This document shows, piece by piece, positions 26,435 through 49,107 of a stretch of 64,000 bases of DNA; the stretch's first letter is position 1, and each line of letters starts with the position of its first letter. The notes under the pieces are model-generated. The model was not told the DNA's origin, made no database searches, and was given only the letters and a program-made list of their open reading frames with translations. Source of the stretch: Bacteroidales bacterium (GTDB lineage Bacteria > Bacteroidota > Bacteroidia > Bacteroidales > UBA3663). The stretch spans positions 4,301-68,300 of the forward strand of contig JAFSKF010000055.1 in the NCBI GenBank assembly GCA_017449065.1, in the 5' to 3' direction. The position numbers and the translations under genes were made by a program.

Positions 26435-26555
26435 CCTGACACCTGACATTTAAATTTTCCAGATTGTCTTGTACTGAAATAGGTTGACTTCTGAAAACAT
26501 GAGAAACACTCGGGGCAGCCATGCGGCAAAAAAACATCACATTTCCGGCAAAATA

Positions 26556-26587
26556 TTTGGAAGTGTCGTAAAAAATGCGTATATTTG
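26556..26587 (+). promoter_or_regulatory. Promoter of the MmeI-like RM gene
   Basis: TTTG (26556-26559), a 20-nt spacer, then TATATTTG (26580-26587). The ATG is at 26659. Confidence 0.6.
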
Positions 26588-26658
26588 CATCATGAAACAA
26601 CTCCCTCTGAATCACTGTTTCATACGAATGCAAACAACAGAATCACGGCACCGATAAG

Positions 26659-29589
26659 ATGAAGACCGATAAACAGATGGCTGCAGCTGCAGCGAAATTC
26701 GCCCAGAGATGGAAAGGCAAAGGCTATGAGCGCGGACAGAGCCAGCTGTTCTGGGCCGACCTGCTCACCAGCGTCTATGGCGTGGAGAACCTTCCGGAGT
26801 TCGTCCGCTACGAGGAGCAGGTCACTTCGATGGTGGATAGCACCAACTTCATCGATGTGCACATCCCATCAACAAAAGTGCTTATCGAGCAGAAATCCAT
26901 CCATGTGGATTTGCGCAAGCCCATCAAGAAAGGCGACGGCTATATCACTCCCTTCCTGCAAGCCAAGCAATACATCGTGAACATGCCGCAGAAGGAGCAT
27001 CCCAAATGGGTGGTGACCTGCAATTTCAAGTCGTTTCTGGTTTACGATATGAACCAGCCTAACAAAGAGCCGGATGAAATTCTTTTGGAAGACTTGGGGA
27101 CGGAATACTACCGACTGAAGTTTCTGGTCGATGCACAGAGCGAACATATCAGCAAGGAGATGGAGGTGTCGATGCAGGCCGGCGAGATTGTGGGCAGAAT
27201 CTACGACGCCTTGCTGAAGCAGTATGACGACAATTCGCCCGAAGCCCTGCGCTGGCTCAACATCCTCTGTGTGCGCATCGTGTTCTGTCTGTATGCCGAA
27301 GATGCGGGCGTGTTCGCCAGAGACCAGTTCCACGACTACCTGATCCGCTACGATGCCGACGACCTGCGCAATGCCCTGATCCGGCTGTTCGACGTGCTGA
27401 AGACCCCGACCGAGAAACGCAGCAAATACCTCAAGGACGACCTCAAAGCCTTCCCCTACACCAACGGCGGCCTGTTCGAAGAGGAGATAGAGATTCCGCA
27501 GTTCACCGACGAACTCAGGCAGACGCTGCTGCACAATGCGAGCCTCGACTTCGACTGGAGCAAGATCTCGCCTACCATCTTCGGAGCCATGTTCGAGAGC
27601 ACGCTCAATCCGGAAACGAGACGTTCCGGCGGTATGCACTACACCTCGATCGAGAACATCCACAAGGTCATCGACACGCTGTTTCTGAACGATCTGTGCA
27701 GGGAATTCGACATCATTCTGGAAGAGAAAGTCGAACGGCAGCGCGTAAAGCGGCTCGATGCCTTTCAGGACAAACTTGCCTCGCTCACCTTCCTCGATCC
27801 GGCTTGCGGCAGCGGCAACTTCCTCACCGAAACCTATCTTTCGCTGCGACGTCTGGAGAACGACGTTATCCGTGCCAAATATCACGGTCAGTCCATGCTG
27901 GGCGCCTTTGTGAATCCCATCAAGGTCAGCATCCAGCAGTTCTATGGCATCGAAATCAACGACTTTGCCGTCACCGTTGCCACCACAGCCCTATGGATCA
28001 GCGAGGCCCAGATGCTGGCAGAAACGGAGCGCATCGTGCATCAGGACATCGACTTCCTGCCGCTGAAGCCCTACCATAATATCCGCGAGGGGAATGCGCT
28101 CCGAATGGAGTGGGATGTGATTGAAGAAAAGTCGGATATTCCTACGATTCATGCAGAAAAAGTACACCTGATTGTTGAATCGGAGCCGAAAATGGTCAAA
28201 GATTCTTCTGTTGTCGAATACGGAGAGCTGAATGTAATAACGAAGCATTTTGAAAGCGCCAACGAACCGGAGAGTAAGTTCCGACGGGTACATTACGACT
28301 ACATCATCGGAAATCCGCCGTTTGTAGGTGCCAACATGATGAGCAAAGAGCAACGTGCAGACCTTCGCCACGTTTTCGGTTCAAAGTGGAAGAACATTGG
28401 TGAAATGGATTATGTGACAGCATGGTATATGCAAGCGGCCCGCGTAATGAAAGGAAGGGATACCCGTGCTGCGCTTGTTTCTACCAACAGTGTATCGCAA
28501 GGAGAACAGGTCGCTAATTTGTGGCAACCTCTCTTCGAACAGCTTGAAATGCATATTGATTTTGCACACAGAACTTTCCGATGGGATAGCGAAACGACAC
28601 AAAAAGCACATGTACATTGTGTGATTATTGGTTTCAGTAATGCAAAAAACAAGGCTCCCAAGATAATATATAATGGAGAGAATGTGCGAGAGGCAGCGAA
28701 TATTAACGCCTATCTTATGGATGCTCCCAATGTGTTTGTCGGAAGTCGAAGTAAACCATTGTGTGACGTTCCCGAGATTCGCAAGGGAAACCAGCCGACC
28801 GATGGCGGACACCTAATTATAGAATCGGAAGATCTTGAAGCGTTCCTTGCACGTGAACCGAAGGCAGAAAAATTCATCAAACGGCTGATTGGTGCTAAGG
28901 AATTTATCAATAATAAGTTACGATATTGTCTGTGGTTGAAGAATGTATCCCCTGCTGAATTAAGGCAGATGCCTGTGGTTATGCAACGTATAGAGGGCGT
29001 TCGTCAAATGCGCAAAACAAGTAGCGATCCTGCAACGAGAAAACTAGCTGATACTCCTTGGCTCTTCCGAGAGACTAATAATCCTGAGACGTATATAATT
29101 ATCCCGTCTGTATCGTCGGAAAAACGGAAATTTATTCCGATGGGCTTTTTAAAGTCCGATACAATACCGACCAACCTCGTTCTTATCATTCCCGATGCAA
29201 CGCTCTATCACTTTGGCATCCTTGAGAGCAATGTTCATATGGCGTGGATGCGAGCTGTATGCGGAAGATTGGAAATGCGCTATCGTTACTCAAAAGATGT
29301 AGTTTATAACAACTTCCCTTGGCCTAAGCCCTCCGAGGAACAAAAGATGAAGATTGAACAGACGGCACAAGCCATTCTTGACGCACGTGCTCTCTATCCG
29401 GATTCTTCTCTGGCAGACCTCTACGACGAACTGACAATGCCCGTAGAGCTTCGTAAGGCTCATCAGGAGAACGATCTGGCGGTGATGCAAGCCTACGGCT
29501 TCCCGGTCAGAAATACGTTTACGGAAAGCCAATGCGTGGCAGAACTGTTTAAGCTCTATCAGGAAATGACTGAAAAGAAAGGGAAATAA
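26659..29589 (+). CDS. Type IIL (MmeI-family) single-polypeptide restriction endonuclease / N6-adenine DNA methyltransferase
   Basis: 976 aa. The N-terminal PD-ExK-type motif D66-X10-E77-Q-K79 (FIDVHIPSTKVLIEQKS) matches the MmeI D-X9-EXK arrangement. The SAM motif is FLDPACGSGNFL, the catalytic motif is YIIGNPPFVG, and a long C-terminal target-recognition region follows. Confidence 0.85.
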   Translation: MKTDKQMAAAAAKFAQRWKGKGYERGQSQLFWADLLTSVYGVENLPEFVRYEEQVTSMVDSTNFIDVHIPSTKVLIEQKSIHVDLRKPIKKGDGYITPFLQAKQYIVNMPQKEHPKWVVTCNFKSFLVYDMNQPNKEPDEILLEDLGTEYYRLKFLVDAQSEHISKEMEVSMQAGEIVGRIYDALLKQYDDNSPEALRWLNILCVRIVFCLYAEDAGVFARDQFHDYLIRYDADDLRNALIRLFDVLKTPTEKRSKYLKDDLKAFPYTNGGLFEEEIEIPQFTDELRQTLLHNASLDFDWSKISPTIFGAMFESTLNPETRRSGGMHYTSIENIHKVIDTLFLNDLCREFDIILEEKVERQRVKRLDAFQDKLASLTFLDPACGSGNFLTETYLSLRRLENDVIRAKYHGQSMLGAFVNPIKVSIQQFYGIEINDFAVTVATTALWISEAQMLAETERIVHQDIDFLPLKPYHNIREGNALRMEWDVIEEKSDIPTIHAEKVHLIVESEPKMVKDSSVVEYGELNVITKHFESANEPESKFRRVHYDYIIGNPPFVGANMMSKEQRADLRHVFGSKWKNIGEMDYVTAWYMQAARVMKGRDTRAALVSTNSVSQGEQVANLWQPLFEQLEMHIDFAHRTFRWDSETTQKAHVHCVIIGFSNAKNKAPKIIYNGENVREAANINAYLMDAPNVFVGSRSKPLCDVPEIRKGNQPTDGGHLIIESEDLEAFLAREPKAEKFIKRLIGAKEFINNKLRYCLWLKNVSPAELRQMPVVMQRIEGVRQMRKTSSDPATRKLADTPWLFRETNNPETYIIIPSVSSEKRKFIPMGFLKSDTIPTNLVLIIPDATLYHFGILESNVHMAWMRAVCGRLEMRYRYSKDVVYNNFPWPKPSEEQKMKIEQTAQAILDARALYPDSSLADLYDELTMPVELRKAHQENDLAVMQAYGFPVRNTFTESQCVAELFKLYQEMTEKKGK

Positions 29590-29763: not shown

Positions 29764-31209
29764 TTAGTTAGAAATCGTCAAAGTTGTCTTATCGCAGATC
29801 AATCGGAAACCGACATAAGCGGCTTTATCTTCCGTGAATGCCAAAGAGAAATTAACTCGATTATTAATTAAAAGAGCGTTAGATACAGGTGTAATTGCAT
29901 TTTCTGCACTATTAAAATAGCCGCCCATATATTTATAGGCGTAATACACATTATACGTATGGGTACTTCCTGTATTTGTCCATTCTCCCACATTTCCACT
30001 CATATCATAAAGGCCCAACTCATTAGGAAGTTTCTGTTTAACCCCATGAGGCGTTCCATTACTGTTTAATGAGAACCACGCGACATCTGCAGCTATATTT
30101 CCTCCACAATAGGTTGTACTCTTCGATAAATTCCCTCCTTTGGCTGCAAAAGACCATTCAGCTTCGCTTGGTATAGAAAAAACACTCCCTGTTTCTAAAT
30201 TTAACCTGCTAATAAATGCATTGCATTCGCTTAACGAAACGTTTGTCACTGGCATACTTGGATCCTTTATCGTTGACGGATTCGTCTGCATAACAGCTTC
30301 CCAAAGTTCCTGAGTAACCTCAGTTTCTCCCACATAATAGCAATTTCCATTTAGGCCCGAAACGCCATTATAGACTTTCATCATGCGGAAACTAACTCCA
30401 GCAACAGTAAAATCCTTAAAACGGACTGCTTTCCAGCCATTCATATTTTCAGAGGTCGGGATATTCAGATAACCGCTTTTTCCTTGTGCCAGGACTTTCG
30501 AACTAACTGTTTTTTCAAACGCCAGGTTGTTTGCCCTATCGTGTATGGTTATTTTGCGATTATCCTCTTCTTCAAAAAAGCCGTAGTAATAATCTGAAAA
30601 TCCGTCTTTCAGAACGCTGCCATCAAAAACAGAATCTCCCTTAACAAACTCATTATCTTCCAGACTGTAACTTCGATAAAAGGATATTCCTTCTGCTATA
30701 AAAGATTGCTTGGATGTACCTTTTAGCCTGATTCGTCCTGTCATAGGCTTTAAAATCGCATCCACTTTAACTACTTTGTCGTTGAACGAATAAGTGGCAC
30801 TATTATCTGCAAAAATAGCCGTTGTCTTGTTCAATGTAACTGCACTGTAGGAACTTTCTGCGGCATTTTCAAAATAATAACATTCGCATACGGCGTTATC
30901 GACCTCAGTCAATGAACCATAAATCTCCAAATCCCACTTTGATGCTGCGGAACTATATTTTGCCATTCCGCTGATTCTATCGTTTCCTGACGAAAACTGA
31001 AAATATACCTTTGAACCATCTTCCCAAGTTTCGGCTAAAACAGACCGAGTAGTACCCTCACTGTCGAAGTCTTCCTTATCTGTATTCAGTTCAATCTCCG
31101 CATAAGTTACGACTCTATCTTCTTTAGGCTGAACCAAATCTTCTGCATCATTAGAACATGACGCTATCAGAAAAGCCAAAGGAGTAAATAAGACAAGTAA
31201 TTTCTTCAT
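29764..31209 (-). CDS. Surface lipoprotein: paralogous N-terminal ~230-aa domain plus C-terminal FGE-sulfatase-fold domain lacking the catalytic Cys pair (operon gene 7)
   Basis: The lipobox is LIASC, followed by the acidic stretch SNDAED. FGE-fold motifs are present: GETEVTQELWEAVM, ECNAFISRLN, PSEAEWSFAAKGG and LGLYDMSGNVGEWT. No CxxxxC occurs where FGE has its active site. Confidence 0.8.
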   Translation of the reverse strand: MKKLLVLFTPLAFLIASCSNDAEDLVQPKEDRVVTYAEIELNTDKEDFDSEGTTRSVLAETWEDGSKVYFQFSSGNDRISGMAKYSSAASKWDLEIYGSLTEVDNAVCECYYFENAAESSYSAVTLNKTTAIFADNSATYSFNDKVVKVDAILKPMTGRIRLKGTSKQSFIAEGISFYRSYSLEDNEFVKGDSVFDGSVLKDGFSDYYYGFFEEEDNRKITIHDRANNLAFEKTVSSKVLAQGKSGYLNIPTSENMNGWKAVRFKDFTVAGVSFRMMKVYNGVSGLNGNCYYVGETEVTQELWEAVMQTNPSTIKDPSMPVTNVSLSECNAFISRLNLETGSVFSIPSEAEWSFAAKGGNLSKSTTYCGGNIAADVAWFSLNSNGTPHGVKQKLPNELGLYDMSGNVGEWTNTGSTHTYNVYYAYKYMGGYFNSAENAITPVSNALLINNRVNFSLAFTEDKAAYVGFRLICDKTTLTISN

Positions 31210-31278: not shown

Positions 31279-32778
31279 CTACAACGGAATAACGACAGGT
31301 TGTTTCCCACGATATGCGGGTTGAGTCATACCAATGCGTGCACCTGTATAGGTGGGATCACATATCACATATTTCCTGTTATCAACCATTACATAATCCC
31401 CAGAAACCTCCTGATGGAAATTCACTGCGCTCCAAAGATGTCCTGGCGAATAGAGCAAAACTACATCCAAACCCACTAATTTACGGACCAGAAGAGATAA
31501 TAATATAGACCGGTCCTCACAATCGTTATTCGGGTAATAGAAATTCTCCTCAAAAAAGAACGGTTTCTCATAACCGAACTGTTCGTTGTCGGTTGCATAG
31601 CTAAAACCATATTGGAGGAAATCCATCAGCATTGAGACTTTTTCATACTCTGTCTTTCCGTCAAGTGCCTTCCGAAGAGGTGGCATCAACTGTCTGCCGA
31701 CATCTTCCGACAAGGGCTGCCGTGCATAAAATCCCCAAGGATAGCCACAGAAATAAGGTTCTGATTCATAGTAGTCCATCAGATTCTTATTGACACTAAC
31801 AGAGACTTTAACTTCTGGATAACGTTGGGAATAAACCGTTCTCTTTTCACTTTCAATATTACTTAACACCATTTCAGAAGGGCACTCAAAGTCAATTGGA
31901 CGTATGGCGTCTTTCATATTCAGACGATAAGTGTAGATCTGTTCGTTTTTTATGTTTGTGTCAAGAATATAATATGTCTTACCGTCAATTGTCAAGAAAG
32001 CGAAGGTGTATGCTTCCATCGTAAATGGACAAAGAATCAGCAACCGGTTGCTTGCGGATCTTGCCATACGCACATCATAACCCAACTGATTCATTAACCA
32101 TGCCTGCAACAGAACCGCTTCATTTCCTTGTGTGTCTTCCACTTTCCGTGAAACGGATTCACAAAGTTTGAAAGTTGCCCATCCATTCAATTTCATATTC
32201 CGCTGCAAATTCGAACAGTCAGCAACGAACGAACCCGTATTTACAGACGCCAATTTATACAAGCAATCAGCCACGTCTTTTTCCGTGCAGGATGCAAGTC
32301 GGAATTTTAATTCATCGGTAACCGAAATACTGCAACCCGTTCCAAAAAAAATCACATTAATCTTCTTTGGTTCGCCCTTATCCCCCTTGGGAACTTCTGG
32401 AACCACTATCGGAACTGGTTTGACAGGCTTCTTATCTGGTAAAATCTCACCATGAGGAAGTGGAGAAGGTTCCACTGGAGCCACATCTTCTTTCGGAAGG
32501 ACTACAGGTGGAACAACAGGTTTGGGTTCCGTGTGTTTCTTCCTGCCAGGCAAAACTTCGAATAAATCCCATTTTTGCCGAGCATAGGCTGCAAACTCCT
32601 CATTCTTTTGTTTCCGATACTGTTCAAACTTCCGATATTGTTCCGTGCGATAGTCCGAAAATTCCGCCCTCTTCTGATTCCTGAAAGCCTCAAATTCAGA
32701 CTTTTTGTCAAATTGGGCCAGCACTGTCACAGATAACAGTGCACCAAATAGTGATAAAACAATTCTTAGTTTGAACAT
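31279..32778 (-). CDS. Secreted transglutaminase-like (Cys-His-Asp papain-fold) protein (operon gene 6)
   Basis: 499 aa. Order of parts: signal peptide, charged helical segment, Pro-rich linker, then a C-terminal core of DCEDRS..GHLWSAV..ICDPT that matches the transglutaminase-core pattern. Confidence 0.7.
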   Translation of the reverse strand: MFKLRIVLSLFGALLSVTVLAQFDKKSEFEAFRNQKRAEFSDYRTEQYRKFEQYRKQKNEEFAAYARQKWDLFEVLPGRKKHTEPKPVVPPVVLPKEDVAPVEPSPLPHGEILPDKKPVKPVPIVVPEVPKGDKGEPKKINVIFFGTGCSISVTDELKFRLASCTEKDVADCLYKLASVNTGSFVADCSNLQRNMKLNGWATFKLCESVSRKVEDTQGNEAVLLQAWLMNQLGYDVRMARSASNRLLILCPFTMEAYTFAFLTIDGKTYYILDTNIKNEQIYTYRLNMKDAIRPIDFECPSEMVLSNIESEKRTVYSQRYPEVKVSVSVNKNLMDYYESEPYFCGYPWGFYARQPLSEDVGRQLMPPLRKALDGKTEYEKVSMLMDFLQYGFSYATDNEQFGYEKPFFFEENFYYPNNDCEDRSILLSLLVRKLVGLDVVLLYSPGHLWSAVNFHQEVSGDYVMVDNRKYVICDPTYTGARIGMTQPAYRGKQPVVIPL

Positions 32779-32784
32779 ACCAAC

Positions 32785-33636
32785 TTAGAAATTATAAGTC
32801 AATGAAAGTCCGGCATAATCAGGCCCTACGGTCGGCACCATACCGAAACGGTTCTCTCCGGCAGGTTTCACCTTTACTTGCCTTGCGCCCTTTGCCACAG
32901 CAGCATCTAAGACATTATAGACCCAGACAGCAATTCCGGCACCAATGCATACATTACGTCCCGTTTCCCAGTTAGATTTTTTATCCTCATACTGTTTTGC
33001 AAATTTGGGAGTTTCTTTAATTTTACGCTCATAAGAACTACATTTGTTTTCGCAAAACAACATTCCGGATACCGCAGCAGCCTCAGCTGCAAAAAAACAA
33101 ATACCCTTCACCCGGCTACCTTTATACCACTGCCCCGCTCCAGGGACAACTGACATCAGCACAGGAGCCACTCCATAAGAAGTCGTTAGATAGGTCCGGT
33201 CGAATACGGGATGATCCTCAACTGCAACCATAAACAATGTATGCATCTTGACCAATCCTTGTTCTTGGGTAACATATTCATCAACTGGATAAGCCTGCAG
33301 TTCAAACTGTTTACCCGACACCTGCATCCTAACATCCACCTGATCACGAATGGTCTCATTCATCTGTCCGTTGACGACTGTCTGTTCTATGTTGCGAAGC
33401 TTACCACTTTCAACATTCACCTGAACGGCACGGGTCAGTTGTTCGTTTGAAGCCAGTTTTTTCTTGGCTTCTTCGCGGGCACTTGCTATATCAGTTGCAT
33501 ACGAAACCACTTCCACAAACTTGTAGGTGTGGTTCATTTCCTGTGGGGTATTGCCGACCCACCTGGGCTTTTGTGCCACCAATGTGGTGGACAAAAGTCC
33601 AAGTAAGACAAAACAGATATCACGGAGTTTTATCAT
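32785..33636 (-). CDS. Secreted protein with LPP20-like N-domain and hydrophobic C-terminal region, PGAGQWYKG motif (operon gene 5)
   Basis: 283 aa with a signal peptide. The C-terminal half has 2-3 hydrophobic segments resembling Bacteroidetes DUF5683 and ends in ..LSLTYNF. The family assignment is tentative. Confidence 0.5.
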   Translation of the reverse strand: MIKLRDICFVLLGLLSTTLVAQKPRWVGNTPQEMNHTYKFVEVVSYATDIASAREEAKKKLASNEQLTRAVQVNVESGKLRNIEQTVVNGQMNETIRDQVDVRMQVSGKQFELQAYPVDEYVTQEQGLVKMHTLFMVAVEDHPVFDRTYLTTSYGVAPVLMSVVPGAGQWYKGSRVKGICFFAAEAAAVSGMLFCENKCSSYERKIKETPKFAKQYEDKKSNWETGRNVCIGAGIAVWVYNVLDAAVAKGARQVKVKPAGENRFGMVPTVGPDYAGLSLTYNF

Positions 33637-34214
33637 AATCCTAACTTACCTTGTAGTTTCTTAAGCTCTTCTTTGTTCTCTTCAATGAACTTCTGCCTGT
33701 CAAAATCGGTCTGAAGAATTTCATCCTGGGTCAACCGATTATAGGCATCATCTAACAGTTTATCGGTTGTCTGGGTTAACTCGATACAAACATACGCCGT
33801 AATTGTCTTATCCGGATTATCGTATATCGACGGCTCACCTATCACTTTGTAGCTCAGCACTTGAGAAATGTAGGTTTTTACGTGATTCTGCACTTCCTGT
33901 TCCGTGAGTCCACGGTTATCAATCTGATTGGTTTTATTGTAGCGGTCGCGCACACCGATGATAGCCGACTGGATGCGACCTGCAAGTAGCGCGACAGCTG
34001 CATTTTCTGCATTCTCCAATGCCACATCTTCAAGACTCGATGTTGCAGAAGAAGCTGCCCTTAGGTTTTTACCTTCCTTTTGTGCTAACTGGTATGTCGG
34101 ATCTACCGTGCGTCGAACCCTACCCGCTGTATCAACAGCAGCTTTCTTGGAACCACAAGAAACAAACACCGTGGCAGTCATCATCATTGCTGCCAATAAC
34201 ATTAACTTTTTCAT
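33633..34214 (-). CDS. Small lipoprotein, LPP20/FlgP-like (operon gene 4)
   Basis: 193 aa. The lipobox is VFVSC, followed by basic residues GSKK. It overlaps the next gene by 4 nt (ATGA). The fold assignment is tentative. Confidence 0.5.
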   Translation of the reverse strand: MKKLMLLAAMMMTATVFVSCGSKKAAVDTAGRVRRTVDPTYQLAQKEGKNLRAASSATSSLEDVALENAENAAVALLAGRIQSAIIGVRDRYNKTNQIDNRGLTEQEVQNHVKTYISQVLSYKVIGEPSIYDNPDKTITAYVCIELTQTTDKLLDDAYNRLTQDEILQTDFDRQKFIEENKEELKKLQGKLGL

Positions 34215-34242: not shown

Positions 34243-35607
34243 TTAATAAGATAATAATCTCAAACCTATAGCATATGAAGCCGAAGTAAATGAAGAATTA
34301 GAACTATATGATGAACATTTGACATAATTCTGACTATCACTATAGTATCCTCCATAATAAGAAAATGAATTACCTGATGCCAAAGTCATTTCTGATACAT
34401 TGCCGCTCATGTCATAAATTTCCAGTTCGTTCGGCTTCAAGGTCTTCACATCATGTCTCGAAGAATTACTATTGCCAGAATACCAAGCAACCTCAGCAAC
34501 AGAATTGCTCCCAGAGTAAGTATATCCCTGGGTTAAATTTCCGCCTTGAGCGGCAAAGAACCACTCAGAAGCAGTAGGCAAACGGAAGTTTTCTCCGGTT
34601 TTGGCATTCAGTTTCGCAATGAAAGTAAGACAATCATTGTAAGATACATTGGCTACCGGTAAATTATCTCCTGAAAGATTCGTGTTCATCACCGCATTCC
34701 ACAATGCCTGGGTAACCTCAGTCTCCCCAATGAAGAAACTATAATAGGAAGCGTTGCCTACCACACGAATCATTCGGAAAGACACCTTTCCTATCGAATA
34801 GTCCTTAAACTTAACAGTTGTCCACCCGCTACGTTTGTCAAGCGTCGGGATATCGAGATATCCACTTTTGCCGACTCCCAGCGCATTACTTCCGAAAGTA
34901 CGTACAAACGAGACATTGTTCTCCTTATCGTTGAAAATCAACTCTCGGTTATCTTCGTCTGCAAAGAAACCGTAGATATAGTTTGAATAACCGTCTTTTT
35001 CTGTTGTTGAGATTATACTCGGGGCAGCAGATTCGAAGGTATTGCTTTCCAAATTATAGTTAGTATAGCAAGTTACACCATCCAGAAAAAACTCCTGAAG
35101 AGCAGATCCTTTCATGCGGATTCGGCCAGTCATGGGTTTCAGGTTTGCTGTCACTTTCACCGTATTATCTTCAACTGAATACGAAGAAGATTTATCGATA
35201 AAAATCGCTGTTGCGTTTGTTAAAGAAACCGATCTGTATGTTGCTTCTCCTGCATTTTCGAAATAATATGCCTCACACTGACCATCATTGGTGATCGGAA
35301 GGGAACCATAATACTCGATGGTCCAGGATGAAGAAGATTTGCTATACTCTGCCACTCCGTCAACAAGAGAATTACCCACCGAAAACTGAAGGTAAACCTT
35401 GGAGCCATCGTCCCAGGCATCAGCAGCAACTGCGCGAGTTGTCCCTTCGGAGTCGAAGCTCGGCTTGGCGCTGTTGAACTCCATCGTAGCATAATGAACT
35501 TCACGCTCTTTGGTTGGAGGTTCCAAATTATCGATATCGTCACTAGTGCACGACACCGAAATCAAAGTCATTACAACGAATGACACTAAATAATGTAATT
35601 TTTTCAT
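34243..35607 (-). CDS. Surface lipoprotein, paralog of 29764-31209 (N-domain plus cysteine-pair-less FGE fold) (operon gene 3)
   Basis: I prefer the start at M15 (MKKLHYLVSFVVMTLISVSC, ATG at 35605-35607). The lipobox is followed by the acidic stretch TSDDID. By eye, roughly half of the aligned residues are identical to gene 7. Confidence 0.8.
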   Translation of the reverse strand: MKKLHYLVSFVVMTLISVSCTSDDIDNLEPPTKEREVHYATMEFNSAKPSFDSEGTTRAVAADAWDDGSKVYLQFSVGNSLVDGVAEYSKSSSSWTIEYYGSLPITNDGQCEAYYFENAGEATYRSVSLTNATAIFIDKSSSYSVEDNTVKVTANLKPMTGRIRMKGSALQEFFLDGVTCYTNYNLESNTFESAAPSIISTTEKDGYSNYIYGFFADEDNRELIFNDKENNVSFVRTFGSNALGVGKSGYLDIPTLDKRSGWTTVKFKDYSIGKVSFRMIRVVGNASYYSFFIGETEVTQALWNAVMNTNLSGDNLPVANVSYNDCLTFIAKLNAKTGENFRLPTASEWFFAAQGGNLTQGYTYSGSNSVAEVAWYSGNSNSSRHDVKTLKPNELEIYDMSGNVSEMTLASGNSFSYYGGYYSDSQNYVKCSSYSSNSSFTSASYAIGLRLLSY

Positions 35608-35639
35608 AGCTTTTAAATAAGTGTTATACATTAATATTT

Positions 35640-37307
35640 TTAATTCCAATCTTCATCATTGTCGAATTCTTTCTTATCAATATTTCCGATACCCGTAGGA
35701 TTCTCGTTCATATCTTCATCCGAACCATAGCCTTCTTTGCCCAGAGAACCTTCTGTAGATGGATTCCCGTTCAAATCTTCATCCGAACCATAGCCCTCTT
35801 TACTAAAAGTGCCTTCGGCAGATTGATTCTCGTTCAAATCTTCATCCGAACCATGTCCTTCTTTGCCGATTGTTCCCTCTGTATTAGATCCGACATTAAG
35901 ATCTTCGTCTTCCCCAAAGCCTTCCTTACCGATAATACTTTCAGAAGATGATTTTCCATTTAAGTCTTCATCCTGTCCATAGCCTTCTTTATTAATCGTA
36001 CCCTCAGATGAAGTCTCATTCGTTAAGCTATCATCATCTCCGTAACCATCCTTACCAATGGTTCCTTCAGAAGACGTATTTCCTGTCAAATCTTCCTCTG
36101 TGCCATATCCGTTCTTTTCGAAAGAACCCTCTCCATCCGCTGAAGGATTCAAGTCCTCATCCTCTCCATAGTGTTGAACACCGAACTCCGTTCCATCCTC
36201 TTCTTCTGACAAAGTGGTAAACTGAACGACTTCGCCATAAGAAGAGCCTCTTTCGTTAGTCGCGAAAGAACGAATGAAATAAGATGTCTTTGCTGTCAAC
36301 ATTGCCAACCGGGTCTCTAACATAGAAGACTTGCCACAAACCACTTTTGTTCCGTTATCAAAGGATGGCTTATTTGATACTGAATAGATAAATCCTGCTT
36401 CTGAAAGCGTTCCGTTCCCCAAATCAGACACGGATGCTATCGCCGTTGCGAAATGACTGCGAATTTTGCTGACTTCAACAGCAGAAACCGTTGGCAAGAC
36501 AATTTCTTTTTGATTTTCAATATTTACAAGAGTCCAACCTTGCAATACATTGTCAGTGCTTGGAAGAGAAATAAAACCGCTCTGCCCGGCAGCAAGGACA
36601 GCATCGTCAAAACTGCGAATAAAAACGCCTTGTCCAGTTGCATCGACAACCAGTTGACGCTGAGAAACATTAGAAAAACCAACATAGAAATAATCGGTAT
36701 CTCCAGACTTGTCGAATGAAGAAGATATTTTATTTTTGCTGATTTCAAAAGTATTAGTGGTAATGTTATATTCAGTATGATACTGCAATCCAGAAACACC
36801 AAATTTTGCTGATGCCTGCCCTTTGAAACGGACGCGTCCGGTACGGGGGGAAAGCAATAACTTGACAAACATTTCCGAATCCTCGGTGAATGTGAAACTA
36901 CCCTCAACATCCTGATAGATGGCAGAACGTGCATTTAAAGAAACTGATTGTGATGAAGTTCCTGCATCATTTCTGAAAAAATAAGCCTCACAATCTCCAT
37001 CCGTATCCGGTTCTATCTGTCGGGAAGTAGTTATGGTCCACTGTCCGTCTGTCTGACTATAGTTGGCAACACCGGGAATCCGATTGTCTCCAATCTTCAA
37101 CTGCAAGTATAACCGAGCACCTTCCTCCCAAGCATAAGAAGAACGTGTCGGCTGACCGAATCCTGTTAATTCGGCTTCGAGAAATAACCGGTATGAAAAA
37201 AGGGATTCCGGCTTCGAAGCTGGTCCTGAAATCTCCGATTCCCGATAACAGGATTCTGTCAACAGTGACAATAATAGGGCTATGCTATATATGCATATTC
37301 TTTTCAT
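35640..37307 (-). CDS. Lipoprotein: shared N-domain, one Fn3-like module, then nine 21-aa acidic repeats (operon gene 2)
   Basis: 555 aa with the lipobox-like LLTESC. The N-domain aligns with genes 3 and 7 (..LSPRTGRVRFKG.. versus ..LKPMTGRIRLKG..). The C-terminus is ..DNDEDWN. Confidence 0.75.
   Translation of the reverse strand: MKRICIYSIALLLSLLTESCYRESEISGPASKPESLFSYRLFLEAELTGFGQPTRSSYAWEEGARLYLQLKIGDNRIPGVANYSQTDGQWTITTSRQIEPDTDGDCEAYFFRNDAGTSSQSVSLNARSAIYQDVEGSFTFTEDSEMFVKLLLSPRTGRVRFKGQASAKFGVSGLQYHTEYNITTNTFEISKNKISSSFDKSGDTDYFYVGFSNVSQRQLVVDATGQGVFIRSFDDAVLAAGQSGFISLPSTDNVLQGWTLVNIENQKEIVLPTVSAVEVSKIRSHFATAIASVSDLGNGTLSEAGFIYSVSNKPSFDNGTKVVCGKSSMLETRLAMLTAKTSYFIRSFATNERGSSYGEVVQFTTLSEEEDGTEFGVQHYGEDEDLNPSADGEGSFEKNGYGTEEDLTGNTSSEGTIGKDGYGDDDSLTNETSSEGTINKEGYGQDEDLNGKSSSESIIGKEGFGEDEDLNVGSNTEGTIGKEGHGSDEDLNENQSAEGTFSKEGYGSDEDLNGNPSTEGSLGKEGYGSDEDMNENPTGIGNIDKKEFDNDEDWN
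35643..36209 (-). repeat. Coding tandem repeat, 9 x 63 nt (21 aa), consensus xNxSxEGTIGKEGYGxDEDLN
   Basis: The YG/FG/HG-acidic-(L/M/W)N motif recurs at residues 380, 401, 422, 443, 464, 485, 506, 527 and 548. The period is exactly 21 aa, and the protein ends at the end of unit 9. Confidence 0.85.
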
Positions 37308-37331: not shown

Positions 37332-40300
37332 TTAGTTCCAATCTTTGTCTTCACCATAATCGTCAAAATCCACGTCATTCCCAGCGGGCTCTGCTGCTGT
37401 GGTAAATGTCACTTGTTCGCCCAAGGTCGTACCTTTTTCATTAGTAGCATAAGCTCTGACGTAGTATGTTGTCTCAGGCAAAAGTGTAGATATTTTAACT
37501 GATAAGTCGCTTGTTTTTCCACAAGACACCTTATGGTTGGACATTACAGGATTAGAAGAAGTAGAATAAACGAATCCTGCATCACTGACCGACCCGTTTC
37601 CTGCAGAAATAACGGATGCAGAGAGCGAAACTGATTTGTAAGTCACTCGACCAACGCTGACATTAGTCACAGAAGGCGGCACAATTTCGAGTGTCGCAAA
37701 ATCTGTCTCCTCTCCGTAACTTATACCAGCTTCATTGATCACATATGCCCGCACGTAATAAGTCGTATTATCCGACAATCCAGTCACGGTTTTCGAGAAA
37801 TAGCCGGTTTGTACACCCCCACAACTGATTCTCGTTGCATTGTTCACTATCGGTTCTGGAGACTTGGAATATACGAATCCGCAATCTACTATCGTCCCAT
37901 CTCCGTCACTGACAATCGAGCTACGGAAGGTGGCAGAACCGGTTCCGATACTCGATACTGCAACTTTAGCCGATTGAGGCAATTTGATTTCGTGAGTGGT
38001 TTTGAATCCGACATTGTTTCCATAAAAAGTTTCTCCGTCTTCGGTCTGAACATAAGCACGGACATAGTAATCTGTTAATTCAGACAAACCCGTAATGGTC
38101 AATAAAAATCGGTCTGTATATGCTGTCGAATACATATGATCATCGGAAATTGTCGGATAAGGAGACTTACTCCAACAAACACCCCGTTCCGCAATAGAAT
38201 GTCCACCTTTGTCAGATATCGATCCTCCTGTTGTTGCCTTATCATGAATGACATCGCTAACAGCAATGGTTGTCAAACTTACAACATCGTAAGCCGTCGT
38301 AAAAGAAACATCTTCGCCATAGGCTGTTCCGACAGAATTCGTTGCATAGGCCCTGATGTGATAAGTCGTATGCGGCAGAAGGTCTGTCAACTTAGAGGTA
38401 TAAGCTCCGACCACTGTTGCAGAACCCAGAGTTGTCTTATGATCCAATAACGTTGGATTAGAAGTCGTATTCCACACATGTCCATGTTGAGTAATACCAG
38501 TTTCATCACCGATTCTAAGAATGTTACCGGAAGCTGTAGCTTCTCGAGCCTGAACGCTCATAATCGCATCAGTTTCTACTAATGGAACCTTATTCTCATA
38601 AGCCGTTTCAAAAGTTACATCATTGCCGTAGTACGTTTCTCCGTCTGCGGTAAGTACGTATGCCCTCACATGATAGACCGTTTGTTCGTTTAATCCAGAA
38701 ATGCGAATACTGTATCGGTCTGTCGTTTCCTGTGAGCTGAGTTTATCGTCTGACGTTGTCGGATTATTAAAGGTGCTCCAGCATATTCCCCTTTCTCGAA
38801 CCACATGTCCTCCTTTATCCGAAATGATTCCTCCAGTAACGGCAGAGTTGTAGGTTATACCGGAAACTTCCAACGTTGCCAAAGTGACATCATCGTAAGC
38901 CGTAGTAAACATCACATTTTCACCATACGCTGTGCCGGTAGAATTGGTTGCGTAAGCGCGCACATAATAGGTTGTGTGAGGTTGAAGCTCTGACAGTATC
39001 GAAGTGTACGTTCCAATCGTGGAAGTGTAGCCCAACGACGTCTTGTTGTTTGCTGTTGTCGGATTGGTTGAAGTGCTCCATACATGTCCGTATTGTGAGA
39101 CGCTTGTCTCGTTGCCCATTGTCACTATATTTCCTGATACCGTTGCCTGTTTAGGGCGGATATCAGCGATCGATCCTGTTTCAACAGAAGGTACCTGAGG
39201 CTGGACTTTGGTTTCAAAAACCTGTTGTTCAGAATAGTTAATTCCTTCTGCATTTTCAGCGTATGCACACACATAGTATCTTGTCCCAGGTTGCAATTGA
39301 GAAGCTGAATATTCGAAATCCTTTGCCAACTCGCTATCTCCCAAATTGCACGACTGCCCCTTACCCAGCATCGGATGTTCTTCTGTACTCCAGCAAAAGC
39401 CGTGCTTTGTTACTTTTGCACTACCTAACGACACGATTCCGCCTTTGAATTTTGCTGAAACATAACCTATACTGTCAACAGTATAGAAAGTAACCGTCGG
39501 CTTGTCTTTCGATGGCACATTCATTCGGACTGGGATGTCTATATTGTCTTCACCAACTGTAAGCTTTAAGGCACCAGAATAGTCTCCAGCATTTAATCCT
39601 GTTCGGTCAACAACAACATTTAGCGCATCATTTCCAGATGTTATTGTACCACTCGTCTTCGAAGGAATAATCCAAGTATTCGACGGCGTCAGTGCATAGC
39701 TAACAGTCTGACTACCTGTATTTGTAAGCGTAAGTGTGATAGAAGTTGTAATGGAGCCAAAATCCAGTTCCTCCGGAGAAATTTTAACCGTCAGACCTTG
39801 AACACTGATATTAACTTTTACAACTGCACTACCCCCGTTACTTGAAATAGCAATAGTTTGCGAATATGTTCCTTTGGAAAGGCCTGTCCTATCTGCATTC
39901 AGAATTACAGACGAAGATTTCCCTATGACTGTAGTCCCTGAAGTCGGAATACATTGCAACCAGGAGATATCTTCGCTAATCTGCCAATTCAAGGCTGCTG
40001 CCCCGACATTTTTTATATCTAAGGTTAACGAAGTGTTTTCGTTGCCGAAATCAAAAGTTTCCTGACTGAGAGAGAGAACCGCCGTAGCTGGAGTCAAGTG
40101 GAAATCAAGTGTGGCTGTAACTCCTGTCTTAACAGCAACGCTCTTAACGTCTTCTTGGTATCCGCTTTTGGTGGCCTGAACACGATAGGAATCGGCATCT
40201 ATATCCTCAAAAGAATACATGCCATTCTGTCCTGTGGTTGTTGTTTTCCCAAGAGGAGACAAAGTCATTGCTACACCTTGGAGGGGTCTGTCCTGGGTAT

Positions 40301-40439
40301 CATAAACCGTACCGGAAATATTACCTGTAATGTCCACCGGATCTGAACTGCCACAAGACATCACGATAAGTGCTGGAAGCACCTCTAGTACATATCTGAT
40401 TATTTTTTTCTTCCGATGATTCATAAATAAAAAGTGCAT
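37332..40439 (-). CDS. Large surface lipoprotein: CarboxypepD_reg-like domain, two BACON-like domains, seven Fn3-like modules, acidic C-terminal tail (operon gene 1)
   Basis: 1035 aa (or a start at M6). The lipobox is IVMSC. The N-terminal domain carries GNISGTVYD..GVAMTL..TTTGQNGMYSF. The BACON-like pattern is L.LS...FDFG......L.I.N.G...L.W......W. The repeated modules carry G(F/I/V)CWS / HGHVWS ... YYVRAY. The C-terminus is DDYGEDKDWN. Confidence 0.8.
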   Translation of the reverse strand: MHFLFMNHRKKKIIRYVLEVLPALIVMSCGSSDPVDITGNISGTVYDTQDRPLQGVAMTLSPLGKTTTTGQNGMYSFEDIDADSYRVQATKSGYQEDVKSVAVKTGVTATLDFHLTPATAVLSLSQETFDFGNENTSLTLDIKNVGAAALNWQISEDISWLQCIPTSGTTVIGKSSSVILNADRTGLSKGTYSQTIAISSNGGSAVVKVNISVQGLTVKISPEELDFGSITTSITLTLTNTGSQTVSYALTPSNTWIIPSKTSGTITSGNDALNVVVDRTGLNAGDYSGALKLTVGEDNIDIPVRMNVPSKDKPTVTFYTVDSIGYVSAKFKGGIVSLGSAKVTKHGFCWSTEEHPMLGKGQSCNLGDSELAKDFEYSASQLQPGTRYYVCAYAENAEGINYSEQQVFETKVQPQVPSVETGSIADIRPKQATVSGNIVTMGNETSVSQYGHVWSTSTNPTTANNKTSLGYTSTIGTYTSILSELQPHTTYYVRAYATNSTGTAYGENVMFTTAYDDVTLATLEVSGITYNSAVTGGIISDKGGHVVRERGICWSTFNNPTTSDDKLSSQETTDRYSIRISGLNEQTVYHVRAYVLTADGETYYGNDVTFETAYENKVPLVETDAIMSVQAREATASGNILRIGDETGITQHGHVWNTTSNPTLLDHKTTLGSATVVGAYTSKLTDLLPHTTYHIRAYATNSVGTAYGEDVSFTTAYDVVSLTTIAVSDVIHDKATTGGSISDKGGHSIAERGVCWSKSPYPTISDDHMYSTAYTDRFLLTITGLSELTDYYVRAYVQTEDGETFYGNNVGFKTTHEIKLPQSAKVAVSSIGTGSATFRSSIVSDGDGTIVDCGFVYSKSPEPIVNNATRISCGGVQTGYFSKTVTGLSDNTTYYVRAYVINEAGISYGEETDFATLEIVPPSVTNVSVGRVTYKSVSLSASVISAGNGSVSDAGFVYSTSSNPVMSNHKVSCGKTSDLSVKISTLLPETTYYVRAYATNEKGTTLGEQVTFTTAAEPAGNDVDFDDYGEDKDWN
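37980..39191 (-). repeat. Tandem duplication of a two-module (~202 aa, ~606 nt) unit inside the Fn3-like array
   Basis: Residues 417-618 (PSVETGSIADIRPKQATVSGN..) and 619-820 (PLVETDAIMSVQAREATASGN..) align colinearly with many identical blocks, for example TAYGE(N/D)V.FTTAYD and DKGGH...ERG.CWS. Confidence 0.6.
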
Positions 40440-41060: not shown

Positions 41061-41738
41061 TCACTTTTCATGCACAGCGCGAACTGCACAACAAAAATAC
41101 AGGTCGCATATCATAAACTGTTTTTTAGAAGTATCGGTGTTAAAATTCAGATGATTGCAACCATACTCGTATCCATTAACGATATAAACCTCATCGGCAT
41201 CAGGTGTACCACACCAATAATTACCTTCATAGCTGATATTGGTATTATCCGTAAACTCAAAATCCATTGAAGAAAAAGACTCGCTCAAATAGTTACTTCC
41301 CGAATTAGGCAAAAAGATAGAATTGCCATTTTTTCCTGTGACACGAAAACCATTGTGTCCATTAACAGTTTCAACATTCCATTCACATTCGTCAACCAAT
41401 TCCCTCATTTCTTTACCTGCTGGCATTCTCCAACCATCTCCCATCATCACCTTAGCTATATCTTTGTCCGTTCCACTAACGTTCATACTTTCTAGCTTAG
41501 GAGATTTGACGGTTCCGGTAACATTCCCCAATGGAACTCTGACACCGACCTCCTCTGGATTCTCGGCACCTACATTGCAAACTGCCCAGTTTACACTTAA
41601 GCCCAAATCTACTCCATAGGATGCGGACTCCTGAATGGAAGCCAATTCTTGTGTATTTTCCGTTTTACTGCTTTGGGAACCGCATCCTGCAAATACAACA
41701 AATGCCAAGATGTTAGCAACAATTAAAAACTTTTTCAT
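41061..41738 (-). CDS. Lipoprotein with FISUMP/DUF1566-like domain
   Basis: I prefer the start at M24 (MKKFLIVANILAFVVFAGC), which lies downstream of the minus-strand -7 box TATATTTG (41779-41786). Motifs NWAVCNVGA and GDGWRMPAGKEMRELV resemble the Fibrobacter-paralogous/DUF1566 pattern (W+.P...E...L). Confidence 0.6.
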   Translation of the reverse strand: MKKFLIVANILAFVVFAGCGSQSSKTENTQELASIQESASYGVDLGLSVNWAVCNVGAENPEEVGVRVPLGNVTGTVKSPKLESMNVSGTDKDIAKVMMGDGWRMPAGKEMRELVDECEWNVETVNGHNGFRVTGKNGNSIFLPNSGSNYLSESFSSMDFEFTDNTNISYEGNYWCGTPDADEVYIVNGYEYGCNHLNFNTDTSKKQFMICDLYFCCAVRAVHEK

Positions 41739-41952
41739 GATGTTAAAAATTAGTATTAATGAGATATGTTTACGGGTGCAAATATAAAGGAAAAAGCTTT
41801 TCGACAATCAAAACGCTTGCAGTTTTTTTGAAAAATCCGCTACATTTTCGCATCATGCTAAAAAAATGATAGGATTGGAATGTCCGAATTATTATATCAG
41901 GACTCATGCCATCTCAATGCTATCCTTTTTTGTCGGCCTTATCACAACGCCC

Positions 41953-45276: not shown

Positions 45277-46527
45277 TCAATATACTTCCAGACATTCGTC
45301 CAAGGCCTGACAGATGGCTTTCTTATCCATCTTCTGACCGATGAAGACAATCTTCTGCATGCGGTCGCCGTAGGTCTCATCCCAATCTCGTTGTAGCTGC
45401 TGGTCGAAGGCCAACTGGCGTTGCAATTCTGCCTCTGGCATCGTGGCGTACCATTTACCGGCATTGCGAAGGTTCACCTGACGTCCGGCCTGTTCGAACA
45501 CGTAGCAGGTATCGCGTTCGTCGCTGAAATAGCACATACCCTTGCATCGGATTACGCTCTTCGGCCAATGACGGGCCACAAATTCGTCGAAGCGACCCAG
45601 GTTGAGCGGCTGACGGCGCTGATAGACGAAAGTACCGATGCCGTATTCCTCTGCCTCACCTTCCTCCTCATTCTCGTGATCATGATGGTGGTGGTGATGA
45701 TGCTCATGATGATGTTCGTGCTCGTCTTCGTCATGATGATGGTGATGCTCGTGTTCGTCTTCATCGTCATCATCGTCCTCGTCCTCATCGTGATGTCCCT
45801 CCACTTCCTGAATCCAGGTGGCAGAAGTTGCCACTTTATCGAAATCGAACATACCGGTGTTGATAATCTTATCGAGATCCACCTCGCAGTAATCGGTTTC
45901 GATGATCTGAGCCTGAGGCTGGATGGCTTCGATAATCTTCTTGATGCGGCCCAGCTCCTGCTTACTCACTTCGCTTGCCTTGTTCAGGAGGATGATGTTG
46001 CAGAACTCAATCTGCTGAATGACAAGATTCTCCAGATCATCTTCGTCCAGATTCTGTTTCATTAGGTTGTTGCCGCAGCCGAACTCATCCTTGAGACGCA
46101 AAGCATCCACTACAGTGACAATGCAATCCAGATCGGGCACACCGCCTTCGGTCACCTTCTCGGGCACAATCTGAGGAATGGAATAGATGGTTTGTGCAAT
46201 CGGACCGGGTTCGCAGATACCGCTGGCTTCAATCACAATATAATCGAACTTCTTCTGGCTGGTGATGTCAGTCAGCTGCTGCACCAGATCCATTTTCAGT
46301 GTACAGCAGATGCAACCGTTCTGCAACGCAACCAGGCTATCGTCCTGCTGTCCCACAATACCGCCCGCCTGAATCAGGCTTGCATCGATATTCACTTCGC
46401 CGATATCGTTCACAATGACTGCAAACTTGATACCGCGCTTGTTATTCAGAATCTTGTTGACTAACGTTGTCTTGCCGCTTCCTAAATAACCGGTCAGCAG
46501 CAGAACCGGAACTCTCTCGTGACTCAT
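45277..46527 (-). CDS. COG0523/CobW-family GTPase metallochaperone with His/Asp/Glu-rich insert (ZigA/YeiR-like)
   Basis: 416 aa with P-loop GYLGSGKTT and metal motif GCICC. A 50-residue stretch (aa 245-294) consists almost entirely of H, D and E. Confidence 0.9.
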   Translation of the reverse strand: MSHERVPVLLLTGYLGSGKTTLVNKILNNKRGIKFAVIVNDIGEVNIDASLIQAGGIVGQQDDSLVALQNGCICCTLKMDLVQQLTDITSQKKFDYIVIEASGICEPGPIAQTIYSIPQIVPEKVTEGGVPDLDCIVTVVDALRLKDEFGCGNNLMKQNLDEDDLENLVIQQIEFCNIILLNKASEVSKQELGRIKKIIEAIQPQAQIIETDYCEVDLDKIINTGMFDFDKVATSATWIQEVEGHHDEDEDDDDDEDEHEHHHHHDEDEHEHHHEHHHHHHHDHENEEEGEAEEYGIGTFVYQRRQPLNLGRFDEFVARHWPKSVIRCKGMCYFSDERDTCYVFEQAGRQVNLRNAGKWYATMPEAELQRQLAFDQQLQRDWDETYGDRMQKIVFIGQKMDKKAICQALDECLEVY

Positions 46528-46589: not shown

Positions 46590-46750
46590 GTACAAGTGTA
46601 CCTGCTTTTTTTTGATCTTTTTGTGGAAAATTACCCAAAATTGACAAATTCTCTTTGAAAAATTTGGAAAAACCTTCCAAAAAAACTATCTTTGCAGCCG
46701 AAATTGCGGAAACCAACTAACACAAGGTGAGATTTCAGATTATTTTTTCT

Positions 46751-49019: not shown

Positions 49020-49107
49020 GTTCGGTTTTTTTCAAAATAATTGCACATTTCAGAGATTTTATGTATCTTTGCGCCCGTAATAATTATAGAGTAGAGAGTA
49101 TTGTGTA

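Follow-up and report, generated by a model that had tools for sequence, protein, structure and literature searches.

A repeated acidic C-terminal tail of Bacteroidales lipoproteins, paired with lectin-headed neighbours: a possible docking element

Bacteroidales dominate gut and rumen communities, and adhesion, nutrient capture and recognition by phages and the immune system depend on the lipoproteins at their surface; beyond SusCD-type complexes, type V pili and the cargo of the type IX secretion system (T9SS), the organisation of such proteins at the surface is little understood. In type V pili, a C-terminal donor element of one subunit meets the N-terminal acceptor domain of the next, and dockerins use C-terminal, duplicated, Asp/Asn-rich segments of about 22 residues to dock onto a partner that is encoded nearby. 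The type V pilus operons of Bacteroides include tip adhesins with a C-type-lectin fold, the genes of which lie downstream of those for anchor and stalk (bioRxiv 10.1101/2024.11.15.621889). Here we describe a C-terminal tail made of acidic units of 21 amino acids (aa), carried by two adjacent lipoproteins of 555 and 1035 aa in an operon of a gut or rumen Bacteroidales bacterium (GenBank assembly GCA_017449065.1, contig JAFSKF010000055.1, positions 4,301 to 68,300; this whole stretch of 64,000 nucleotides is called the window below). A preliminary description of the window had pointed to these repeats and suggested that they are a sorting, docking or cross-linking tag, or a Ca2+-binding tether. 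We define the tail as a repeat family, together with an N-terminal domain of about 240 aa (the N-domain) and a strict genomic rule that ties both to lectin-fold heads.

Cut back from its C-terminus, the 555-aa protein reveals an array that stays in register without insertions or deletions, and the nine gap-free units reported earlier were found at exactly 35643-36209 (Table 1). The consensus given for them, xNxSxEGTIGKEGYGxDEDLN, fits units 3-8; units 1, 2 and 9 are diverged. Translation bears out the altered last unit, which ends KKEFDNDEDWN with the stop codon directly behind it, F replacing Y at position 14 and W replacing L at position 20. The 1035-aa protein ends in ..AEPAGNDVDFDDYGEDKDWN followed by the stop, which is indeed one unit, although the nucleotides first assigned to it (37335-37364) cover 10 residues and the 12 residues quoted span 37335-37370. 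A check of the window's 574 stop-to-stop frames (50 aa or longer) finds an acidic-W-[ND] ending in these two adjacent genes and in no other. The 555-aa protein itself is identical to a hypothetical protein from a Bacteroidales metagenome-assembled genome (MAG).

The composition of the tail, rich in Gly, Glu, Asp, Ser and Asn, would suit low-complexity filler, that is, a slippage-driven tandem repeat without specific function. The DNA shows the repeat only weakly: TRF sees just 2.7 copies of period 63, a DNA repeat search finds 6 copies with 62-100% identity to the reference copy, and the mean pairwise identity of the units is 44% in amino acids and 55% in nucleotides. Because the codons differ in 174 of the 335 cells in which units share a residue, about half, the units are old and kept at the protein level rather than fresh products of slippage; units 7 and 8, with 81% nucleotide identity, are the exception.

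The orthologues of the 555-aa protein bear on the same question. We compared 20 of them (P0002-P0021) from Prevotella-like genomes and metagenomes, at 33-61% identity, of which all except the truncated P0015 are C-terminally complete. Repeat anchors are present in 19 of the 19 complete sequences, with 2-9 units each; an anchor scan gives the exact 21-aa period throughout in 17 (P0018 and P0020 show larger gaps), the stop codon directly follows the last unit in 17 (P0007 has 12 extra residues and P0019 three), and the last unit contains W in 17 (R in P0012, L in P0021). Over 82 internal units the residues kept are G7, I/F9, G10, K/R11, G13, Y/F14, G15, D17 (79 units), E18 (57), D19 (68), L20 (76) and N21 (72); position 11 is Arg in 21 units, Gln is rare, and Cys does not occur in the units. 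Terminal units shift to F14, N19, W20 (22 of 25) and N21 (23 of 25) with D17/E18 in 25 of 25, and the F14/W20 changes of the window's ninth unit thereby recur in those of the orthologues. Orthologues of the 1035-aa protein end in YGEDKNWD.., YGEDNNWDE, YGDDKNWD and, in P0022, WGEDENWN. Taking 84 carriers together, 73 have 0-3 residues beyond the last unit (42 stop exactly there and 31 have 1-3 more), seven have at least 10, and the last unit contains W in 66; a stop immediately after W-N, correctly seen in the window array, is not universal.

Copy number does vary between relatives, as the comparison suggested in the preliminary description now shows: two close ones have five and three units at 93% identity outside the tail. 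Such variation, and the disorder that AlphaFold2 predicts for the tail (see below), are what filler would be expected to display. Against filler stand the position-specific conservation, which holds at 33-61% identity and across unrelated carrier families, the divergent codons, the fixed period, the invariably terminal location and the specialised last unit, and we regard this explanation as hardly tenable. The period, the motif and the terminal Trp are kept across orthologues and unrelated carriers, so that the earlier alternatives of a conserved element and strain-specific filler are settled in favour of the former.

To establish how widely the tail occurs, a two-unit profile was searched against 1.84 billion representative proteins (E<=1e-3). 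Just 53 clusters matched, two of them obvious false positives on inspection, and nearly all remaining matches lie at the extreme C-terminus. Three types of carrier were distinguished: the window family, with two Ig-like domains and an Fn3 domain; multi-BACON lipoproteins of typically about 750 aa; and a mini-lipoprotein of 119 aa (P0030) that comprises little besides three units. The newly found carriers are mainly lipoproteins of about 710-890 aa with 5-7 BACON domains, and their units, again with a 21-aa period, nearly all read ..G[YF]xxDx[DN]W[ND]. A further carrier family (P0036, P0037, P0052, P0060, P0074) combines an unannotated N-terminal domain with W-type units (GYGDDSNWD..).

A DNA pattern for two consecutive units with the 21-aa period was also run on 185,579 species genomes, one genome each, and gave 30 stretches, compared to about one expected by chance on a rough estimate from base frequencies. 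About 19 of the 30 bear the element, and every one of these is from Bacteroidales: Prevotella, Alloprevotella, Paraprevotella, Hallella absiana YH-C38 (locus L038), Muribaculum/Muribaculaceae, and MAGs of Bacteroidaceae and Porphyromonadaceae. The carrier at element-bearing locus L022 runs off the locus edge, and the stretch at L036 has no open reading frame (ORF) in frame. Viral contigs gave no match to the two-unit pattern. Matches in Streptomyces, Parachlamydiaceae, Acidimicrobiia and Psychroflexus were dismissed as chance. Seven further matches, in Poseidoniaceae, marine group II archaea (L011, L015, L017, L021, L026, L033, L037), are not the element either. They all fall on the same acidic site, ..HESLNDFDDE.DAPDEDPLSYNDHKW.., which is conserved in a single large, conserved protein with full copies of about 1,600 aa and is a recurrent false positive in motif scans. 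A DUF4468 protein encoded beside the transglutaminase-like gene of locus L001 (17786-18538, +) ends ..GIVGNEDEDW-stop, perhaps a degenerate form of the single tail on a further type of protein. Our search of the literature found no description of the tail or of its gene cassette, and the tail is an undescribed repeat family.

Comparison with known families points in the same direction. Neither Pfam nor NCBIfam matched the tail, whether it was scanned alone or as part of the whole proteins, and a PDB profile search with the tail returned two matches at E 0.6-0.9 that we judged to be noise. The C-terminal domain (CTD) of T9SS cargo is a beta-sandwich of about 80-100 aa; neither its type A (TIGR04183) nor its type B (TIGR04131) was detected in NCBIfam scans of whole proteins and tails alone at E up to 10. 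There was likewise no NCBIfam CTERM match of the LPXTG or PEP-CTERM type. Signals of that type join a short motif to a hydrophobic transmembrane helix and basic C-terminal residues, and the last 189 residues here, with a net charge of -45, contain no hydrophobic stretch. The tail is therefore unlike T9SS CTDs, LPXTG and PEP-CTERM signals, as originally stated: it matches none of these families, is acidic and lacks a hydrophobic helix.

Structure models were obtained with AlphaFold2 from shallow alignments of 15-21 sequences (21 for the 555-aa protein). Residues 34-381 of the 555-aa protein are modelled as three beta-sandwich domains with a predicted local distance difference test score (pLDDT) mostly >90, and residues 386-555 as a chain without secondary structure (pLDDT 32-44); at the C-terminus of a multi-BACON carrier, the domain scores about 93 and the W-type tail 31-43. 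Since pLDDT is 31-44 in the tail vs >90 in the flanking domains in both carrier classes, the tail looks disordered, and on these models a disordered series of short linear motifs is its most fitting description. Its low pLDDT fits motifs of this kind that fold upon binding. A beta-solenoid or hairpin repeat, hinted at by the strand-like proximal units of multi-BACON carriers (TLTVKGF..), was considered and is unsupported, with a tail pLDDT of 31-44 and shallow alignments.

An acidic, flexible array might also be a tether or spacer that binds Ca2+ (or Mg2+), with D-x-[DN]-x-[ND] turns as chelators, and that stiffens, extends or cross-links the surface layer, for example to lipopolysaccharide or capsule, with no specific partner. 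The tail consists of 29% Asp+Glu with a net charge of -45, its residues D17, [DN]19 and [ND]21 are spaced i, i+2, i+4, an arrangement kept in all carrier classes, and a variable copy number suits a spacer. Cation bridging is plausible, too, because all proteins of the cassette are acidic. However, the described Ca2+-binding patterns do not fit when read by eye. The 12-residue loop of an EF-hand begins with D and closes with E/D; in between it has D/N/S at positions 3 and 5, G at 6 and a hydrophobic residue at 8, and it bars hydrophobic residues from position 4. D17, D19 and N21 of the unit match positions 1, 3 and 5, and the pattern fails at L/W in position 4, Ser in 8 and Gly in 12. The dockerin pattern fails at hydrophobic position 8, the model of the tail contains no helix, and the 555-aa protein has no Pfam family at E<=0.01. 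The GGxGxDxUx nonapeptide of RTX repeats is absent, the period is 21 aa, and neither Pfam nor NCBIfam gives an RTX match. No Pfam or NCBIfam model of a Ca2+-binding repeat and no PDB sequence matches the tail. A spacer would, moreover, leave unexplained the conserved Gly, aromatic and Lys residues, the W-bearing last unit and the place just upstream of an N-domain gene, a pairing that would then be mere operon membership. We consider the tether rather unlikely.

The pairing in question is strict. In 24 loci with 36 tail-bearing ORFs, the next gene carries the N-domain in 34 of the 34 cases for which downstream DNA is available. Multi-unit arrays with downstream DNA number 21, and 16 of them are followed by a gene for an N-domain with a detected head that resembles formylglycine-generating enzyme (FGE-like head); in the other five the gene runs off the locus end (L009, L012), is split (L032), or has an Lcl_C/DUF1566-like (L006) or a divergent head (L035). 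After a single-unit tail, the next gene encodes an N-domain protein that is itself a tail carrier in 11 of 13 cases. The rule holds in both types of cassette, in three carrier families and in several genera. A control scan of metagenomes comprised 80 loci with 105 FGE-domain ORFs: 79 loci have neither an N-domain nor a tail ORF, and the sole locus with an N-domain, L039, has three tail-bearing ORFs directly upstream.

The window represents one of the two cassette types, with the gene order 1035-aa, 555-aa, 468-aa, 193-aa, 283-aa, 499-aa and 481-aa protein, a synteny kept in related loci. The multi-BACON cassette encodes, in order, a PEGA protein of about 690 aa with an outer-membrane-type C-terminus (..HFYF), the tail carrier, an N-domain/FGE-like lipoprotein, a protein of about 220 aa and one of about 610 aa with an LPP20-like N-terminus; the mini-lipoprotein P0030 belongs to a reduced version of it. 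Between the accessory proteins of one type and those of the other, neither hhalign (probabilities all <=17%) nor Pfam detected homology; this includes the 193-aa protein of the window type and the ~220-aa protein of the multi-BACON type. Judged by sequence, the tail gene and the N-domain/FGE-like gene that follows it are all that the two cassettes share. The last gene of the multi-BACON cassette (L038, L025, L010, L016, L020, L022, L032, L003) specifies a conserved secreted protein of about 600-620 aa, with the LPP20-like N-terminus, a C-terminus of the form ..KVRTWQPEKDPxFG[IL]YGPE.F and, in one copy, a weak SnoaL_4 match. In the mini-lipoprotein cassette of L003, a 407-aa protein (152-1375, +) with the Pfam families Transporter_N, PCD-like and Transporter_C precedes the PEGA protein.

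Each cassette type has an outer-membrane-like protein (PEGA, ..HFYF; DUF5683-like, ..TYNF). Such a protein could be a machine for transport or anchoring that reads the tail as a C-terminal signal for sorting or export and places or retains the lipoprotein on the surface or in vesicles. The extreme C-terminal position, the distinct W-[ND] last unit and the stop directly after it in half of the carriers are what such a signal would require. This explanation is improbable for several reasons. In the DNA examined the tail is limited to one or two cassettes instead of occurring on a wide range of cargo proteins, the two types of cassette have outer-membrane candidates without homology to each other, W-N is often followed by further residues, and 2-9 repeats of a signal would be unexpected. 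In addition, the proteins already have lipoprotein signal peptides with what reads as an acidic export-type motif near the N-terminus. Acidic residues following the lipidated Cys are the surface-export signal of Bacteroidota; read by eye, lipoboxes are present in carriers and N-domain proteins (that of the 555-aa protein, LLTESC, is atypical), and acidic residues come after the lipobox in both carriers and FGE lipoproteins. The tail-bearing lipoproteins are probably surface-exposed.

The preliminary description had favoured a different reader, regarding the transglutaminase-fold product of the operon as the obvious candidate. On this view the tail would be a substrate to be cleaved, cross-linked or modified; an FGE-like protein acting as an enzyme could play the same part. 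The 499-aa protein is a probable Cys-His-Asp transglutaminase-like protein: C420, H447 and D474 are invariant in five orthologues, Transglut_core matches weakly in four of five orthologues (best E 0.0028) and not in the window copy, and no PDB sequence matched the protein. The units hold conserved Lys/Arg and conserved Asn. Homologues of this gene, however, were found only in window-type cassettes (L001, L006, L007, L027), and within the locus DNA examined the multi-BACON and mini-lipoprotein cassettes, which carry the same tail, lack it. Since position 11 is Arg in 21 of the 82 units, Lys is not required there as a nucleophile; Gln is rare, the units have no Cys and the FGE-like heads have no visible catalytic Cys pair. 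The transglutaminase-like protein was consequently rejected as the partner on its distribution, and the substrate explanation as a whole is very improbable. The wider suggestion that the tag is read by another product of the operon fares better, a partner in the same operon being the most economical assumption, with the difference that the constant co-occurring component is the N-domain/FGE-sulfatase-like lipoprotein (window genes 3 and 7).

The N-domains of the 555-, 468- and 481-aa proteins are paralogous by phmmer, and among their invariant features are the motif PxTGRxR and an Arg that follows the first strand (..TR). Pfam and NCBIfam scans with 22 members found no family, apart from one noise-level hit to Mfa_like_1 (E 0.097), a profile search of PDB found nothing, and the top 50 Foldseek matches of the 555-aa model are generic tandem Fn3/Ig proteins; by sequence, the N-domain is an undescribed domain.

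The solved structure nearest to the FGE-like head is that of TvpA from Treponema denticola (2y3c, E 6e-17). Catalytic FGEs have an active-site Cys pair, five residues apart, in a C-terminal GGS..C....C segment. No such pair was seen in an alignment of 20 N-domain/FGE proteins read by eye, which shows at most one conserved Cys in the segment; the 481-aa protein has none there and only a late Cys after G[LF]R. The same alignment reveals, after GGxY and before the final G[LF]R, a hypervariable segment with many Ser, Tyr and Asn residues. The lack of a Cys pair together with the hypervariable segment makes the head look like a binding head and not an enzyme. The hypervariable 3' ends of the FGE-like genes, at 34246-34400 and 29767-29950, look like the variable region of a target of a diversity-generating retroelement (DGR). 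This identity was not adopted: the 64-kb window contains no template repeat of either 3' end, in a search that was not aimed at a reverse transcriptase.

We tentatively favour the view that the units form a cassette-specific, disordered tail for multivalent docking, by which the lipoprotein with the lectin head, encoded alongside, is recruited. Each unit would offer hydrophobic or aromatic anchors (I/F9, Y/F14, and L or W20) set among glycines and an acidic turn, D-x-[DN]-[LW]-[ND]. Located at the extreme C-terminus, the tail would bind the lipoprotein encoded by the next gene, and the contact would most probably be made by the conserved N-domain, not by the hypervariable lectin-like head. Gene order would mirror the order of assembly, from base to adaptor to tip. 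The base would be a BACON/Fn3-rich protein with a tail and without an N-domain; the window's 1035-aa lipoprotein is such a 'donor-only' protein. The optional adaptor, a role suggested for the 555-aa protein, would combine an N-domain, an Fn3 domain and a multi-unit tail, and the tip would have an N-domain and a non-catalytic FGE/C-type-lectin-like head but no tail. The candidate docking partner in the window is the 468-aa lipoprotein, its gene lying directly downstream of the repeat-bearing one. The number of units (2-9, varying between close strains) could set reach or valency, and bridging of the uniformly acidic proteins by Ca2+ is possible.

A number of observations weigh against docking. 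Many of the 24 loci are orthologous, so that independent events are far fewer than 34 and amount approximately to the two types of cassette, the mini-lipoprotein and several genera. Membership of one operon and a common function could give the pairing without protein contact. The loci from the DNA scan cover 8 kb only and required the two-unit pattern, so that tails elsewhere in the genomes would be missed. Charge complementarity between the tail and the FGE lipoprotein was considered as a basis for binding and rejected, the FGE lipoproteins being acidic as well (pI 4.4-5.8). The hypervariable segment speaks against the head as the part that binds a conserved motif. Finally, the shallow alignments (15-21 sequences) leave room for a tail fold that depends on metal or is induced by a cation or a partner.

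A bolder extension of the docking proposal, which at present we hold to be doubtful, is that tail and N-domain are donor and acceptor of a new modular surface assembly of Bacteroidales, in which base, adaptors and tip are chained in gene order and the units set the number of diversifiable lectin heads; cleavage at the Arg and insertion of a strand or motif may be involved, as in type V pili. There is a hint that the tail unit mimics the first strand of the N-domain, according to a donor-strand logic: the maximum of a position-specific scoring matrix (PSSM) for the tail unit falls within about 10 residues of the invariant Arg in nine of 39 proteins, vs about two expected by estimate. The similarity between tail unit and first strand is nevertheless weak, with an hhalign P of 0.04 and negative PSSM scores, which tells against this logic.

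Table 1. Coordinates of the tail units, domains and genes of the operon in the window
Feature	Position	Strand	Description
Nine 21-aa acidic units	35643..36209	-	Last 189 residues (367-555) of the 555-aa lipoprotein; disorder predicted; net charge -45
Terminal unit 9, ENPTGIGNIDKKEFDNDEDWN	35643..35705	-	Stop codon 35640-35642 directly after
Single tail unit, ..AAEPAGNDVDFDDYGEDKDWN	37335..37397	-	C-terminus of the 1035-aa lipoprotein, adjoining the last Fn3-like domain
Gene 1, 1035-aa lipoprotein	37332..40439	-	Pfam: CarboxypepD_reg, two BACON_2; about eight Fn3-like domains; tail; no N-domain
Gene 2, 555-aa lipoprotein	35640-37307	-	N-domain, Fn3 and tail array
N-domain of the 555-aa protein	36522..37208	-	About 230 aa, two Ig-like beta-sandwiches; phmmer; pLDDT >90
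Fn3-like domain before the tail	36210..36521	-	Weak NCBIfam stretch, residues 265-371; confident beta-sandwich; Foldseek: tandem Fn3
Gene 3, 468-aa lipoprotein (462 aa from ATG 35631)	34243..35649	-	N-domain and FGE-sulfatase-like head; Pfam PF03781, E 1e-19; no tail
Gene 4, 193-aa lipoprotein	33633..34214	-	No acidic residues after the lipidated Cys; accessory, window-type cassette only
Gene 5, 283-aa protein	32785..33636	-	Signal peptide; weak DUF5683 match (membrane helices); C-terminus ..LTYNF; window-type accessory
Gene 6, 499-aa secreted protein	31279..32778	-	Lys/Pro-rich N-terminal region; probable transglutaminase-like core
Gene 7, 481-aa lipoprotein	29764..31209	-	Paralogue: N-domain and FGE-sulfatase-like head; no tail; last in operon

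The surroundings of the operon in the window offer some further observations. Just upstream, at 41061-41807 (-), lies a gene for a 248-aa lipoprotein with a weak match to Lcl_C (DUF1566, lectin-like). On the other side, a 976-aa ORF that adjoins the operon (26659-29589, +) contains, as read from its translation, the motif GNPPFVG, characteristic of type IIG restriction enzymes and of DNA methyltransferases that modify N6-adenine. A 416-aa GTPase-like protein (45277-46527, -) has a long insert rich in His, Asp and Glu, ..HHHHHDEDEHEHHHEHHHHHHHDHE.., and its translation presumably indicates a CobW/G3E-type metal chaperone. A family of intergenic 46-nt repeats (2539-2584, 26551-26596, 46658-46703, 49035-49080), of the form ..TTTG..(about 19 nt)..TAxxTTTGC, resembles the -33/-7 promoter consensus of Bacteroidota.

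Should the tail prove to be a docking element, it would provide a compact and portable tag for multivalent surface assemblies, and docking of this kind may be a new way in which Bacteroidales assemble surface protein complexes. The lectin fold of the heads is the one diversified by DGRs in related bacteria. In that case it would also help to annotate many unnamed or 'hypothetical protein' genes in Prevotella, Alloprevotella, Paraprevotella, Hallella and Muribaculaceae, and Hallella absiana YH-C38, as a cultured carrier, makes the docking idea directly testable.

Several described systems resemble the cassette in part. The S-layer locus BT1927 of Bacteroides thetaiotaomicron, a pair of a lipoprotein and a beta-barrel, was considered and set aside, as no reported feature of it matches the cassette (PMC4611039). 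With acidic repeats of the RTX type the tail has in common that Gly/Asp-rich tandem repeats occupy the C-terminus of exported proteins and are perhaps disordered until a cation is bound; it differs in having neither the GGxGxDxUx motif nor a family match, in its 21-aa period with aromatic residues, and in its carriers, which are lipoproteins of the Sec/signal peptidase II route and not type I substrates. The likeness to variable proteins of DGRs (TvpA, 2y3c) concerns the partner and not the tail: the partner's head is nearest to TvpA and has a hypervariable segment rich in Ser, Tyr and Asn before G[LF]R, although the window holds no template repeat. Cohesin-dockerin pairs are similar in that a C-terminal Asp/Asn-rich repeat has its candidate partner encoded in the same operon. 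They differ in that the tail matches no Pfam dockerin, does not follow the pattern of a Ca2+ loop plus helix when read by eye, has 1-12 units rather than two and is predicted to be disordered; we know of no cohesin-like partner for it. Type V pili (FimA/Mfa) differ from the cassette as well, since its N-domain matches no FimA/Mfa model of Pfam or NCBIfam beyond the single noise-level hit, the top Foldseek matches are generic Fn3 tandems, and its donor would be an acidic, Gly-rich, repeated 21-aa unit instead of one hydrophobic beta-strand. They are nevertheless like it in three respects: all subunits are lipoproteins; a tail-only base, an adaptor with N-domain and tail, and a lectin-headed tip with N-domain only can be recognised here; and the first strand of the N-domain is followed by an invariant Arg, at the place where prepilins are cleaved.

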